Notes: a model not told the origin generated them from the sequence alone. Shown: positions 58,419 to 64,000, counted from the stretch's first letter. The stretch: DNA of 64,000 bases from Phycisphaerae bacterium (GCA_963675745.2 CAXXWX010000010.1:64001-128000); one strand, 5' to 3'. A program made the numbers and translations.

Positions 58419-58688
58419 ATGGCTCGCATATGCCCTTTTACCGGCAAGCGGACAGTGGCGGGACGCTCGATCGCTCGCCGTGGTAAGGCGAAGTACCTGG
58501 GCGGTGTCGGCCGCAAGGTCACCGGCATCACCAAGCGGAAGTTCAAGCCCAATATCCAGAAGGTCCGCGCGGTCATCGACGGGCGCATTTGCCGGATCCG
58601 TGTGAGTGCCAAGGCAATCCGCATGGGGTTGATCGTCAAGCCGCCCCGGCGTCAATGGTCAAAGCCGGAAGAGCCGACCGAGTCCTAG
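58419..58688 (+). CDS. rpmB: 50S ribosomal protein L28
   Basis: MARICPFTGK...KRKFKPNIQ...RVSAKAIR. Confidence 0.95.
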   Translation: MARICPFTGKRTVAGRSIARRGKAKYLGGVGRKVTGITKRKFKPNIQKVRAVIDGRICRIRVSAKAIRMGLIVKPPRRQWSKPEEPTES

Positions 58689-58769: not shown

Positions 58770-59075
58770 ATGTCACAGGCGATCGACGAAGCCCGTGTAC
58801 GCCACATCGCCAAGCTCGCCCGACTCGCGCTGACCGATGACGAAGTGCGGCTCTTCTCCGGGCAGTTGGCCGAGATCGTCAACTACTTCAAACAGCTTGA
58901 TGAAGTCGATACGGACGGGGTCGAGCCGATGGCCCACGCCTTGTCTGTGATGGATATCCAGCGCGATGACTGCCCGCGCGCGTGGCTCGATACGGCGGCC
59001 GCACTGCGCAACGCGCCGCAGCAACACGAGTCGTTTTTCCAGGTGCCGCCGGTCCTCGGCGGCGGCGGCGCATAG
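58770..59075 (+). CDS. gatC: Asp/Glu-tRNA amidotransferase subunit C
   Basis: [22 protein letters not shown]....FFQVP. Confidence 0.95.
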
Positions 59076-59164
59076 ATGATGAAGCGCGCCCGACCATTGA
59101 TGGCGCGCCGCGGGCCTCAGCCCGCGCGGCACGTCGATTGCGAGCGTGGTGCCCCAGAAGACAC

Positions 59165-60643
59165 ATGAGCACACCTGATTCGGCACAACTGATCGCGGCG
59201 GATGTGGCGGCGGCACGCCGGCGCGCTGTTGACGTCTGCGCGGAAGCGCTGGAGCGCATCGAGGCGTGTGACAGTGCCACGGGGGCCTTTATCGAGGTGA
59301 CGCGCGCTCACGCGCTGGACGCGGCCGCGCGCATCGATGGCGATGTCGCAGCCGGCAAGTCTGTCGGGCCGCTGGCAGGCGTGCCGGTCGCCATCAAGGA
59401 CAACCTGTGTACGCGTTTCAGCCGGACCACGTGTGGGTCGAAGATGTTGGCGGCTTTCGAGTCGCCGTACGACGCGACCGCTGTCGAGCGACTCGAACGC
59501 GCCGGCGCCGTCATCGTCGGCAAGACAAACCTCGACGAGTTTGCGATGGGTTCGTCGACCGAGACCAGCGTGTTCGGCCGCACGCGAAACCCCTGGGATC
59601 TGCAACGTGTTCCCGGCGGCTCATCGGGTGGTTCGACCGTGGCCGTCGCGGCACGCATGGTGCCCATAGCGCTTGGAACCGACACGGGCGGCTCGATACG
59701 CCAACCTGCCTCGTTGTGCGGCGTCGTCGGCATGAAACCGACCTACGGGCGCGTTTCGCGCTTCGGCCTGGTGGCGTACGGCTCCAGCCTTGACCAGATT
59801 GGGCCGCTGGCGACGTGCGTTGACGATGTGGCGGTTGTACTGACGGCGATCAGCGGGCATGATCCGAAAGACTCGACCTGCGTGGACCAGCCCGTGCCGG
59901 ATTACCGCGCGGCGCTGATGGATGACAATCTCGCGCAGCGCGCATCAGGATTGCGGATCGGCATCCCGCGGGAATACTTCGGTGAGGGGCTCGACGCGCA
60001 GGTCAGCGACGCTGTCAAGCAGGCGCTCGACGTGTACCAGACGCTCGGTGCAGAGTTGGTCGACCTCTCACTGCCACACACCCGATACTGCATCGCCGCC
60101 TACTACGTGGTCGCGACGGCGGAAGCGTCCAGCAACCTGGCGCGCTTTGACGGCGTGCACTACGGGCATCGGGCTGAGAAACCATCCGGCATCGTTGATC
60201 TCTACAGCAGATCGCGCGAGGAGGGCTTCGGCCCCGAGGTCAAGCGTCGCATCATGCTGGGGACCTTCGCGCTGTCCGCGGGCTACTACGACGCGTATTA
60301 CAACAAGGCACTCAAGGTCCGCCGGCTGATCAAGCAGGACTTCGACCGGGCGTTCGAGCAGGTTGATGTGCTGGCGTGCCCGGCGTCGCCAACGCCGGCG
60401 TTTCGACTGGGCGAGAAACTCGACGACCCGCTCCAGATGTATCTGGCCGACGTCTACACCATCGGCCCGAACCTCGCCGGCCTGCCGGGCATCGTCGTGC
60501 CGTGCGGATTCAGCGGTGGGGGGTTGCCAATTGGATTGCAGTTGATCGGGCCGTTGTTCGGCGAAGCGGCGCTTCTTCAAACCGCGCGATTACACGAGCG
60601 CGAGACTGATTGGCACACGCGCCGGCCGCCCGATATCGGGTAA
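59165..60643 (+). CDS. gatA: Asp/Glu-tRNA amidotransferase subunit A
   Basis: [42 protein letters not shown]. Confidence 0.97.
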
Positions 60644-60744
60644 CCAGCGCCGCCTCAATCCAACCGCCCCGTCAGGCGTCCGAGTCGGGCCGGTTTCACC
60701 AGCGTGCATTCTCGCGAAGTCACGGCCGACTCGGGGGGCGGCCG

Positions 60745-60892
60745 CTAGAGCGGTTTCAGTAAAGACGCGGTGGCTTACACTGTCGGGGTGGGTCGGGCGT
60801 CTCGCCCGACTTCGACGAAAGCAGTACATGGGCGGGTGGGACGCCCGCCCCACCCGCGTATGGGCAACGGATTGTTGTTGAAACCGCTCTAG
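60745..60892. mobile_element. 148-bp MITE-like element with a nested REP doublet
   Basis: Perfect 14-bp terminal IR CTAGAGCGGTTTCA / TGAAACCGCTCTAG; internal inverted pair at 60786-60855. Confidence 0.8.
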
Positions 60893-60910
60893 GCTATAAG
60901 GCAAAACGCG

Positions 60911-62359
60911 CTATCGACGAATCGTGCGCAGAAACTCCTGCACTTCCGGTATCTCCCCCTGGTAGATGAGGTAGCCGTTGTAGGGTTCGCGCTCGGTGAT
61001 GTCGTTGCAGATCGGCGTGAGCATGATCCGTTGGACTTCGGCCGGGTCGGACGACTGACCCAGGGCCCAACAGAGTTTCATATACGCGACTTCCGGCAGC
61101 ATGTTCGCCAGGGGGACAACGCCGAGCTTCATGATCTCGCGTCCCGTTTCATAGACGTACATCTGCACATAACCCCAAAGCGTTTGGACGGTCATGTAGA
61201 TGTGTACGCCGGCGTCCGTCGCGCGCTTTAACGCCGGGTACAGCGGTTTGTTTACGTGGCCGAGTCCGGTGCCGGCGATGACGATGCCGCGGTAGCCCTT
61301 CTCGACAATCGCATCAACAATGTCGGGCTGCATCCCGGGGTAGTAATAGAGGATCGTCACCTTCTCCTCGAACGTCAGTTTCAGTGTCACGTTGCGGTCG
61401 AGACGGCGGCGACGGAAGTCGTCGCGCAACGGCGACACTTCCTTGGGCGAGATCATGGCCAGAGGCACATCACCGATCGTGCGAAATGTGGACCGGTAGC
61501 TCGAGTGCATCTTGCGCACGCGCGTGCCGCGGTGCAGCAGGCAGTATTCATCCGACGTCGGCCCGAACATGCAGACCATAACTTCGGCAATCGGCCCCTC
61601 GGCGGCGGCTTTGACCGCGTTGATCAGATTGATCGCCGCGTCGGACGACGGACGATCGGAGCTGCGCTGCGAGCCGACCATTACGATCGGAACGGGTGAG
61701 TCCTGCACCATGAAGCTGAGCACTGCGGCGGTGTGGTGCATGGTGTCGGTGCCGTGCCCGATTACGACGCCGTCGACGCCTTCCGCGATCGCCTCGCCGA
61801 CCCTTTTGGCCAATGCCAGATAGTTCTCCTTGGCCATGTTCTCGCTGAACACGCCGTAGAGCTTCTCGGTGCGCAGATTGCAGATGTCGGCGAGCTCGGG
61901 CACGGACCCGTAGAGCTCGCCGGGTGAGAACGCCGGAATGACGGCGCCGGTGCGGTAGTCGAGCCGACTGGCGATTGTGCCGCCGGTGCCGAACAGGACC
62001 ACGTTCGGTTTGGCCGGGTCGCGCGGGAACTCCTTCTCGGGGATTTTGTAGTGCGCCTCGCGGCGGCCGATTTCGGTGATGTTTGTAATCGAATCGGCGG
62101 CAATGCCGACGTTGTAGCCGCTGCTCAGCTTGATCACGATATGGCGGTCATCGGCGGTTTCGGAGCGCGGCAGGATGATACCCGCGAAAATGCCGTTGTT
62201 TGAGTCAAGCTTTACTTCACTCCACACGCCGACATTGTATTGCTCGAGAACTGCGGCGCCGGGGCCGCGGTAGCTTTTGCGTGGCGAATCATCGTTCGAC
62301 GCAGCCCGACGTGCCTCGGTGGTAGCCTTGTCAGAATCCATTTCCAGATCATCCTGCAT
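60911..62359 (-). CDS. gatD: Glu-tRNA(Gln) amidotransferase subunit D (archaeal type)
   Basis: GatD-type N-terminal domain (IVIKLSSGYNVGI), TGGTIAS, HGTDT, GSQRSSDRPSSD, RKMHSS.R. Confidence 0.93.
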   Translation of the reverse strand: MQDDLEMDSDKATTEARRAASNDDSPRKSYRGPGAAVLEQYNVGVWSEVKLDSNNGIFAGIILPRSETADDRHIVIKLSSGYNVGIAADSITNITEIGRREAHYKIPEKEFPRDPAKPNVVLFGTGGTIASRLDYRTGAVIPAFSPGELYGSVPELADICNLRTEKLYGVFSENMAKENYLALAKRVGEAIAEGVDGVVIGHGTDTMHHTAAVLSFMVQDSPVPIVMVGSQRSSDRPSSDAAINLINAVKAAAEGPIAEVMVCMFGPTSDEYCLLHRGTRVRKMHSSYRSTFRTIGDVPLAMISPKEVSPLRDDFRRRRLDRNVTLKLTFEEKVTILYYYPGMQPDIVDAIVEKGYRGIVIAGTGLGHVNKPLYPALKRATDAGVHIYMTVQTLWGYVQMYVYETGREIMKLGVVPLANMLPEVAYMKLCWALGQSSDPAEVQRIMLTPICNDITEREPYNGYLIYQGEIPEVQEFLRTIRR

Positions 62360-62452
62360 TTGACCAAGTACTGCATTGTCCGGCAGGCCTCCGGCCGCCC
62401 ACGCTGACTTGCGGATGGAGGCGACCAGGTCTGTCGGAGTCCACGCGAGCGA

Positions 62453-64000
62453 TTACACCGTTGAGTGCTCAGCCGGGCCGGGTGTGGTACTGCAATCCAG
62501 GCGCTGCCGCACCAGCGCCGCCAGGTGGCGCCCTTCGACGCGCCCGATCAATCGGCTCATCAGCCGGCCCATCACCCAGCGCTGCCGCGCATCGATCGGT
62601 TTATCGGTGCGCGGATTCGCGTCGAGTTCTCGAAGCGCCTCGTCGACTTCCGTTTGGACCACCTTGTCGTTGACCGGCTCACAGGTAAGCGCGCTGGTGA
62701 CTTCGGCGACGCGCGCCACGGGGAACTGCGCTGCCTCACTGTCGCTCAGCACTTGTTCGATCACCAGCGTAACGCCATCGCGGGTTATCCGTCCGTCTGC
62801 ATGCGCCCGAAACGCCTCATACAGGCACTCGTCACATAGCCGTTGCGGTCGGAACCCGGCGCGCCATAGCGCTTTCATGCGTTGCACGAGCACAACCGCC
62901 GCGAATGTGGGGTCTATCTTCAGCTCTTGCACCAGCCGATCAAACAGGCCGATGCGTGGCGAGACCATCAGGGGCTGCAGTGTGTCATGGGGGACGCCCA
63001 GCCTGGCGAGCTCGGCCTCGCGCTCCCAGACATTCACGGGTAAGAGGGATCGGATCTGCTCGAGCCTGGGACGCGTGATCTCCAATGGCGGCAGGTCGGT
63101 GTCTGGGTACATACGCTCGGCGCCGGGGAGCACGCGCTCGAATCCGGTTGTGCCGTCGGGTAGCGCCTGGCGTGTATCATGCGGCACGCCTTCCGTCGCC
63201 TCGCGGGCCCTGATCACAATCTCTTCACACGCCGTCTCGGTGTCGTCACGATCGCCCCACACCAATACGAGCGCGTCGCCGGCCTTGGCCCTGGTTATGC
63301 GATACAGCTCTTTCCAATCGCGCGCCGTCAGGGCCTCGGTCGCCGTGTCTGAGTGCACGATATTGGGCATCTTCGACAGGCAAGCGACCACGCGCACGCG
63401 GTCGGCGAACTCCTTGGCAAAGGTCGTGTGCTCCTGCGTGGTCTCGTTGAGCAATCCCGCGAAACCACGCAGCGCGACGCACATGACGCGCAGCCCGTCG
63501 GCAAGCGCCGCGCGGATCGGGTCATAGCGCACCTTTGTCACCGCGCGCGTGACCTCGTGTTTTGAGTACGCGAAGGAGTCCGGGGTAACTCCGCGTTGCC
63601 GCAACATCTCCCGGATGCGCAGCAGGGCGCATTGCCGCATGGCTTCGTTATAGGTCAGACGCGGGATGCGCCAGATCTGCGGCACGCCCTTGATCTCGAC
63701 GCGCGTACCACCCCGCACGCTCACGTTGACATCCTCGCGCGCGGCGCCATACCCCGTGCGGACTTTGCCCGTGCTGCGGGCCAGCATCCGCAGGATCTGG
63801 CAAACCTCGGCCGCCTCTTGCGGCGTGCGCATATCGGGGTCGGTCACGGTCTCGGTCAGCGGCATGCCCAGCCGGTCCGTCAACAGCACCCGATCGTGCC
63901 CGGTGTCGGAAACCTCGCGACAGGAATCCTCTTCGATCGAAAGCTGGGTGATACCGATGCGGCGGTCCTTGTAGGGAATCCACCCTCCGACGCCGATGAT
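62453..64000 (-). CDS. gatE: Glu-tRNA(Gln) amidotransferase subunit E (archaeal type); 5' end beyond the window
   Basis: Frame is open to 64000: IEEDSCRE, DRLGMPL, DVNVS, RVEIKGV, AspRS-like insertion, TRQALPDGTT.F.R.LPGA.RMYPDTD. Confidence 0.93.
   Translation of the reverse strand: MIGVGGWIPYKDRRIGITQLSIEEDSCREVSDTGHDRVLLTDRLGMPLTETVTDPDMRTPQEAAEVCQILRMLARSTGKVRTGYGAAREDVNVSVRGGTRVEIKGVPQIWRIPRLTYNEAMRQCALLRIREMLRQRGVTPDSFAYSKHEVTRAVTKVRYDPIRAALADGLRVMCVALRGFAGLLNETTQEHTTFAKEFADRVRVVACLSKMPNIVHSDTATEALTARDWKELYRITRAKAGDALVLVWGDRDDTETACEEIVIRAREATEGVPHDTRQALPDGTTGFERVLPGAERMYPDTDLPPLEITRPRLEQIRSLLPVNVWEREAELARLGVPHDTLQPLMVSPRIGLFDRLVQELKIDPTFAAVVLVQRMKALWRAGFRPQRLCDECLYEAFRAHADGRITRDGVTLVIEQVLSDSEAAQFPVARVAEVTSALTCEPVNDKVVQTEVDEALRELDANPRTDKPIDARQRWVMGRLMSRLIGRVEGRHLAALVRQRLDCSTTPGPAEHSTV

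Follow-up and report, generated by a model that had tools for sequence, protein, structure and literature searches.

Archaeal-type GatDE in a Phycisphaerae bacterium that also encodes GatCAB and glutaminyl-tRNA synthetase

The 64,000-nt stretch of DNA analysed here, referred to below as the window, comes from an uncultured Phycisphaerae bacterium (GCA_963675745.2, CAXXWX010000010.1; contig C10:64001-128000) and carries gatE and gatD, which encode the two subunits of the amidotransferase GatDE. Passages of earlier work state that GatDE is exclusive to archaea (PMC2811023, repeated in a 2022 review, PMC9499178). In passages of papers from 2008 to 2022 that treat the enzyme as confined to archaea, the reason why archaea need two amidotransferases and bacteria one is left open (PMC2330236, PMC2811023, PMC9499178). 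A literature search by title and abstract, with supplementary tables and most subscription papers outside its reach, returned nothing on a bacterial GatDE. NCBI and JGI already label such bacterial proteins GatE, and the GatDE of the window is one of many bacterial copies.

Gene arrangement and the spacer repeat

The gene for the kinase/transamidase subunit, gatE (663 aa), lies on the minus strand from 62453 to beyond 64000 (C10:126453-128444), so that its 5′ end is 444 nt outside the window. It is followed after a gap of 93 nt by gatD (60911-62359, minus strand; 482 aa), the asparaginase-like glutaminase subunit, and the two probably form one operon. Facing them on the plus strand is a run headed by rpmB (58419-58688), encoding ribosomal protein L28 (TIGR00009, 65 bits, cut-off 48), and continuing with gatC of GatCAB (58770-59075; TIGR00135, 85 bits, cut-off 47) and gatA (59165-60643; TIGR00132, 605 bits, cut-off 481), which belongs to an ordinary bacterial GatCAB whose gatB is on contig C1. 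The gatA and gatD stops face each other across 267 nt. The convergence of gatE-gatD on rpmB-gatC-gatA and the absence of gatB directly after gatA, both pointed out in the initial annotation, agree with these gene calls.

Gene order in relatives was read from 79 loci, the best of 186 confirmed stretches from a genome scan. By title, 59 are from Planctomycetota or Phycisphaerae and 16 from other named bacteria (mostly Ignavibacteria and Kapabacteria); none is archaeal. The gatE-gatD pair recurs (gatD is present in 67 of the 79), but gatA, gatC or rpmB near it was seen in none, 50 of these loci reaching at least 1.5 kb past gatD. A conserved link of gatDE to gatC-gatA is ruled out by these counts, and the facing layout is incidental. 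Immediately upstream of gatE, 8 of the 79 loci carry glnA; no tRNA genes were found within the 79.

The spacer between the converging stops holds a palindromic dispersed repeat (60741-60895, no strand), which stands outside the enzyme system. It is 155 nt long, has terminal inverted repeats and a predicted fold of -88.7 kcal/mol, and occurs 10 times in the genome (matches of 120 nt or longer with 85% identity or more); from these features it resembles a miniature inverted-repeat transposable element or a repetitive extragenic palindromic sequence. A shorter and more numerous repeat family lies just ahead of it, at about 60680-60747. In the two best public runs, from one sample that is possibly the source, the contigs end at the spacer repeat, and because of this the gatA-gatD adjacency is not independently bridged. 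Read depth in the public runs is alike on either side, at about 6-9x.

Identity, residency and descent of the pair

Both proteins pass the cut-offs of their own families. With the full GatE, PRK04028 gives 510 bits (cut-off 456) and TIGR00134 gives 459 (cut-off 320), while the best of the GatB models reaches 145 (cut-off 338). The protein also contains the GAD insertion, a domain that GatB does not have (PF02938, 30.2 bits, cut-off 23.4). Its best matches among solved structures are 2D6F_C and 1ZQ1_C (E ~1e-97), GatB structures matching at 1e-27 or weaker. GatD reaches 514 and 509 bits with the models of its own family (TIGR02153, PRK04183), whose cut-offs are 310 and 324, carries the GatD_N domain, and aligns to 2D6F_A at E 1.5e-119, asparaginases giving 1e-37 or weaker. 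An identity as GatB and type I asparaginase AnsA is ruled out by model scores, structure matches and the GAD and GatD_N domains; besides, a gatB and another gene of the asparaginase family are present in the genome.

In the alignment with 2D6F_C, GatE residues H29, E171 and E198 fall on H15, E157 and E184 of the Methanothermobacter thermautotrophicus protein, which bind Mg according to part of the structural work (PMC2330236: His15, Glu157, Glu184). Residues T128, T204, D205 and K283 of GatD are invariant in 28 of 28 aligned GatD sequences. On the 2D6F_A alignment they match T101, T177, D178 and K254, which we take to be the catalytic numbering of GatD (Thr nucleophile plus Thr-Lys-Asp triad). 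As judged from these alignments, the catalytic residues of both subunits are kept and the genes are intact.

The pair is also resident. The G+C content at third codon positions of the two genes is 0.785 and 0.795, compared with 0.783 +/- 0.039 for 1184 long frames of the genome, and their codon adaptation indices fall at percentiles 41 and 75; the host-like codon usage reported earlier is real. A matching gatE-gatD pair was found in 15 of 41 relatives; given this recurrence and the similar depth on both sides of the spacer, the genes are not contaminants. In a sample of 131 genomes of the order (at least 90% completeness, the window's genome included), gatE is found in 33, with no stop codons within any gatE match, and one copy sits on a 5.4-Mb chromosome record (L069). 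Genome contamination of 6% and the spacer repeat left unbridged by the run contigs would allow the pair to be a contaminant, a recent island or a decaying relic; given the host-like codons, the nesting of both proteins among Phycisphaerae sequences in trees and the stop-free matches across the order, we regard this as very improbable. Scores, domains, codons and trees together bear out a true GatD and GatE resident in a bacterium.

Three GatE trees, most of whose rows carry no taxon label, were built with FastTree and quick IQ-TREE runs with SH-aLRT support, the root among archaeal GatE not being fixed. In all three, the GatE of the window groups with Phycisphaerae, then with Ignavibacteria and Kapabacteria, in a well-supported branch that also holds Deltaproteobacteria, CSSED10-310, Zixibacteria and some Thermoplasmata (OYT28761.1, UCE36696.1), the Thermoplasmata label being backed by three such contigs that carry TBP, PCNA and PriL genes. 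With a GatB outgroup, the sister of the whole branch is a Heimdallarchaeota GatE (the cluster of TET29438.1; SH-aLRT 99), unlike the Thermoplasmata GatE, which lie inside it; Thorarchaeota and Odinarchaeota GatE are next nearest, and several motifs of the branch are common to Asgard GatE. GatD likewise nests among Phycisphaerae; its tree, which includes no archaeal GatD from outside the branch, cannot speak to origin. An archaeal origin of the bacterial GatE branch is probable from these trees. The branch would have come from archaea long ago, then spread among sediment bacteria and been patchily kept.

Amidation and charging genes in the host and its order

The initial annotation offered two readings of the locus: GatE replacing GatB, or an archaeal division of labour with GatDE serving glutamine and GatCAB asparagine. 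Neither survives a search of the genome. An intact gatB (492 aa) is present on contig C1, glutaminyl-tRNA synthetase (GlnRS) scores 730 bits (cut-off 426), and there is an asparaginyl-tRNA synthetase (AsnRS) gene, the only one found (L008:1165-2672, contig C4), whose frame is shifted by one base near codon 366-372 in this assembly. In relatives the AsnRS orthologues are read in one uninterrupted frame of at least about 500 aa; the frameshift may be an assembly error or a recent loss. One bacterial-type glutamyl-tRNA synthetase (GluRS) and a bacterial-type aspartyl-tRNA synthetase (AspRS) are also encoded. Because the genome has both GatB and GlnRS, GatDE neither substitutes for GatB nor is required for Gln-tRNA. 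asnA was not found in the window's genome, which has one asnB-like gene; nor was type I glutamine synthetase found in it, a single weak PF00120 match, scoring like frames of ~740 aa in relatives, being probably a type III glutamine synthetase.

Across the order, gatD accompanies gatE in 32 of the 33 gatE genomes and is found in none of the 98 others. GlnRS is present in 32 of the 33, as in 92 of the 98 (and in 3 further gatE genomes whose gene was classified), so that compensation by GatDE for a lost GlnRS is ruled out; compensation for a missing glutamine synthetase is equally ruled out, since 130 of the 131 genomes have one. AsnRS, which in this order has an insertion that makes the TIGR00457 threshold too strict and was therefore sought with a protein query, is found in all 33 gatE genomes and in 123 of the 131 overall, with 4 more by family model.

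Loss of GatCAB does follow gatE. Seven of the 131 genomes lack gatB; six of these carry gatE and lack gatA as well, while the seventh, a genome without gatE, still has gatA, and its missing gatB is probably an assembly gap. With a further gatE genome from outside the sample in which gatA and gatB are both missing, gatB-less relatives with gatE are without gatA in 7 of 7 cases. GatCAB (both gatA and gatB) is missing from 6 of the 33 gatE genomes and from 0 of the 98 others (Fisher p 2e-4, or 6e-3 when the comparison is restricted to the three families involved), although these p values, and those for the other gatE associations given below, are overstated because related genomes are not independent. 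The six genomes are spread over six genera and three families. Within the sample, then, GatCAB loss is seen only where GatDE is present. A histidine that may mark an AspRS of the non-discriminating kind (ND-AspRS) is present in the host genome and in 3 of the 4 readable GatCAB-less genomes.

These counts also bear on a hybrid GatC-GatA-GatE enzyme, with GatE in the place of GatB, which the adjacency on this one contig might suggest. That idea is scarcely credible: gatB is intact elsewhere in the genome, gatE travels with gatD, the gatB-less gatE relatives lose gatA too, and the adjacency is absent from all 79 loci. A gatB apart from gatA is in any case usual in the order, gatA being within ~1.5 kb at only 1 of 9 gatB loci. 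Replacement of GatB by GatE is ruled out at the genome level.

Two further genes vary with gatE. AsnA is depleted, occurring in 4 of the 33 gatE genomes against 50 of the 98 others (p 0.013 within families f1 and f7 taken together; it holds in f7 and not in f1 alone). A subtype of GlnA, a type I glutamine synthetase with at least 61% identity to the query (L042:4501-5916, L339-L350), shows the opposite trend, with 23 of 33 against 4 of 98; the association holds within both f1 and f7, and the subtype is present in 6 of 6 GatCAB-less genomes. It stands immediately upstream of gatE in 8 of the 79 loci, and it tracks gatDE even where the two are apart, as in 10 of the 12 loci read. Taken as a whole, gatDE is an accessory system, patchily kept beside the usual routes.

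tRNA substrates and the possible role of bacterial GatDE

Archaeal GatDE discriminates tRNA-Gln from tRNA-Asn partly through the first base pair. In the host genome, tRNA-Gln(UUG), tRNA-Gln(CUG) and tRNA-Asn all carry U1-A72 (ARAGORN), not the A1-U72 expected under an archaeal division of labour. Similarly, U1-A72 was found in 49 of 49 tRNA-Gln read from 33 genomes, with or without gatE or GatCAB, and in 30 of 31 tRNA-Asn from 30 genomes, these being the readable ones among 56 and 32 matches to a search pattern that favours bacterial-type tRNAs. No A1-U72 was found among the tRNA-Gln read from the host and these 33 genomes, and no covariation of the first pair with gatE or GatCAB loss was seen among the tRNAs read. 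The proteins are thus GatD and GatE family members, and the system lacks two archaeal GatDE traits, an A1-U72 tRNA-Gln and the absence of GlnRS. The tRNA-Gln(CUG) gene forms a tandem 88-nt duplication (C26:506895-507054), with an altered 3′ acceptor end in the second copy, and a tRNA-Sec gene lies on contig C16.

GatE itself differs from its archaeal relatives where it would meet the tRNA. A loop reported, in part of the structural literature, to lie at the tRNA first base pair (PMC2811023) most commonly reads RTGxGA in Phycisphaerae and in Ignavibacteria and Kapabacteria, as against K/Q-RGxGT in archaea; in members from Zixibacteria and Thermoplasmata it is of archaeal-like form. In all, the branch differs from other archaeal GatE at 57 columns; these include a short GAD-domain insertion and position 255, which is Gln in 56 of 58 archaeal rows and Pro in 87 of 111 rows of the clade. 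The tail motif GXXAXGX, tied to rejection of Asp-tRNA(Asn) in passages of PMC2811023, is absent in its strict form from all 111 clade rows, yet is present in only 8 of the 58 archaeal rows.

By analogy with archaeal GatDE (M. thermautotrophicus 2D6F, Pyrococcus abyssi 1ZQ1), with which it shares both subunits, the domain order, the insertion domain, the Mg-binding His/Glu/Glu and the Thr/Thr-Asp/Lys glutaminase residues, the enzyme would assemble as an alpha2beta2 complex. GatD would free ammonia from Gln or Asn, the ammonia would pass to GatE, presumably through a tunnel, and GatE would phosphorylate and amidate an acidic aminoacyl-tRNA. The setting is different: the host is a bacterium with GlnRS, AsnRS, GatCAB and a U1-A72 tRNA-Gln, and the system is accessory and patchy where the archaeal one is essential. 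If it acts on the host's tRNAs, as seems likely, it must have adapted to U1-A72, because this is the pair they carry, and such an adaptation would remove one barrier against tRNA-Asn. Since both host tRNAs have U1-A72, the enzyme should take Asp-tRNA(Asn) as well as Glu-tRNA(Gln), and since GlnRS already yields Gln-tRNA, its useful output would most likely be Asn made on tRNA. Our favoured interpretation, to which we give a probability of roughly 0.45, is therefore that GatDE is an amidotransferase equivalent to GatCAB that acts on U1-A72 tRNAs and probably serves in asparagine formation. The loss of GatCAB in gatE-bearing relatives hints that the two do the same job, and nitrogen would flow from NH4+ to Gln by GlnA and from Gln to Asn-tRNA by GatDE.

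A comparable role has been proposed for GatCAB itself. In passages of PMC4206432, Asn synthesis is put forward for bacteria with GlnRS, AsnRS and GatCAB, and no bacterium is said to be known with both Gln-tRNA routes. The GatCAB of Bdellovibrio, Thermus and Deinococcus discussed there resembles the present system in its proposed Asn synthesis on a U1-A72 tRNA-Asn and a dispensable Gln-tRNA role (PMC4206432). Here, in contrast, the glutaminase subunit is unrelated (an asparaginase fold and not an amidase), there is no GatC, and GatE has an insertion domain and lacks the 3-10 turn.

Several observations weigh against the asparagine interpretation. The retained insertion domain blocks binding of ND-AspRS to archaeal GatDE (PMC2943598), and a 3-10-turn insertion of the bacterial GatB type was not seen in the alignment of GatE to solved structures. 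The window's genome lacks the GlnA subtype, and the non-independence of genomes tempers the associations. The GatCAB-less genomes have other possible sources of Asn, asnB-like genes in 5 of 5 searched and asnA in the sixth, and for this reason GatDE is not shown to be their sole Asn route. The conserved asnB-like gene is also found in the window's genome. In 3 genomes of the family (L176, L133, L135) this gene sits between mutM-like and fliN-like/murJ-like genes, labelled by eye.

Gene neighbours point the same way. In 5 of the 79 loci asnA lies immediately downstream of gatE, an arrangement also in keeping with Asn serving as the amide donor for Gln-tRNA. In a second set, of 80 loci retrieved from metagenomes with a Thermoplasmata member as query, tRNA-Gln lies directly behind gatE at 7 (low-GC, archaeal-type), 6 of them with A1-U72, and one bacterial-type locus reads gatE-gltX-tRNA-Gln(U1-A72); the first 45 include 15 with glnA nearby, and an archaeal asparagine synthetase was seen at 3. 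Such neighbours speak for glutamine chemistry in some members of the branch at least. The two kinds of locus also differ in gene order, gatD and gatE being divergent in archaeal-type loci and mostly in gatE-gatD tandem in bacterial ones. The tRNA-Gln genes behind archaeal-type gatE (L259, L260, L270, L274, L282, L283, L287) include some with odd anticodon loops, and that of L274 has its first position unpaired; they may be secondary or dedicated copies.

The main alternative is an amidotransferase acting on Glu-tRNA(Gln) only, as in archaea, but tolerating U1-A72. It would run alongside GlnRS as a second, indirect way to Gln-tRNA, or would repair the Glu-tRNA(Gln) that a relaxed GluRS produces, and its amide donor might be Asn; lineages in which GatDE assumes this repair and Asn comes from AsnB would then lose GatCAB. 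The kept insertion domain and the tRNA-Gln and asnA neighbours speak for it, as does the GluRS of Phycisphaerae, in which the motif near the anticodon-reading Arg (the discriminating Arg358 of Thermus thermophilus GluRS in part of the published account, PMC2978374) is shortened and altered. The host GluRS has a one-residue shortening there in common with one other Phycisphaerae GluRS, but the motif is ambiguous, since the region of the Arg aligns in two registers, and the Ignavibacteria and Kapabacteria enzymes retain the Arg. The host gene (L004:628-2289, contig C4) also has a ~60-residue insertion after the KMSK motif. The archaeal members of the branch, with their tRNA-Gln behind gatE, should be without GlnRS according to a general statement in PMC9499178, which also speaks for it. 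Against it, GlnRS is nearly always present in the gatE-bearing genomes of the order and would make the Gln-tRNA route redundant. AsnA depletion would be left unexplained, and the pairing with GlnA would be futile if GlnRS charges Gln directly. We consider this Glu-only alternative possible, though short of probable.

The patchy, accessory occurrence, the nitrogen-gene neighbours (glnA, asnA, AS-AR) and the higher conservation of GatD (70-80%) than of GatE (55-67%), whose tail has diverged, would also suit a repurposed enzyme that amidates an acceptor outside translation (free Glu, free Asp or a carrier), or one that serves nitrogen handling as a regulated glutaminase/asparaginase. This is improbable, as the helical and tail domains are kept in 111 of 111 aligned clade GatE rows, tRNA-Gln is linked to gatE elsewhere in the branch, and GatCAB loss tracks GatDE.

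A more specific form of the asparagine interpretation, which we consider somewhat unlikely, is that bacteria acquired GatDE from an archaeal lineage related to Asgard, that in them its specificity shifted or broadened to Asp-tRNA(Asn), and that, with a dedicated GlnA, it formed a new Asn route that displaced GatCAB in several Phycisphaerae lineages. If true, this would be the first GatDE working as an Asp-amidotransferase. The significance of the system rests on this substrate question and not on the layout at the present locus. The branch records an old transfer of a translation component from archaea to bacteria, and, bound to U1-A72 tRNAs and linked to GatCAB loss, it would offer a natural experiment on why archaea need two amidotransferases and bacteria one.

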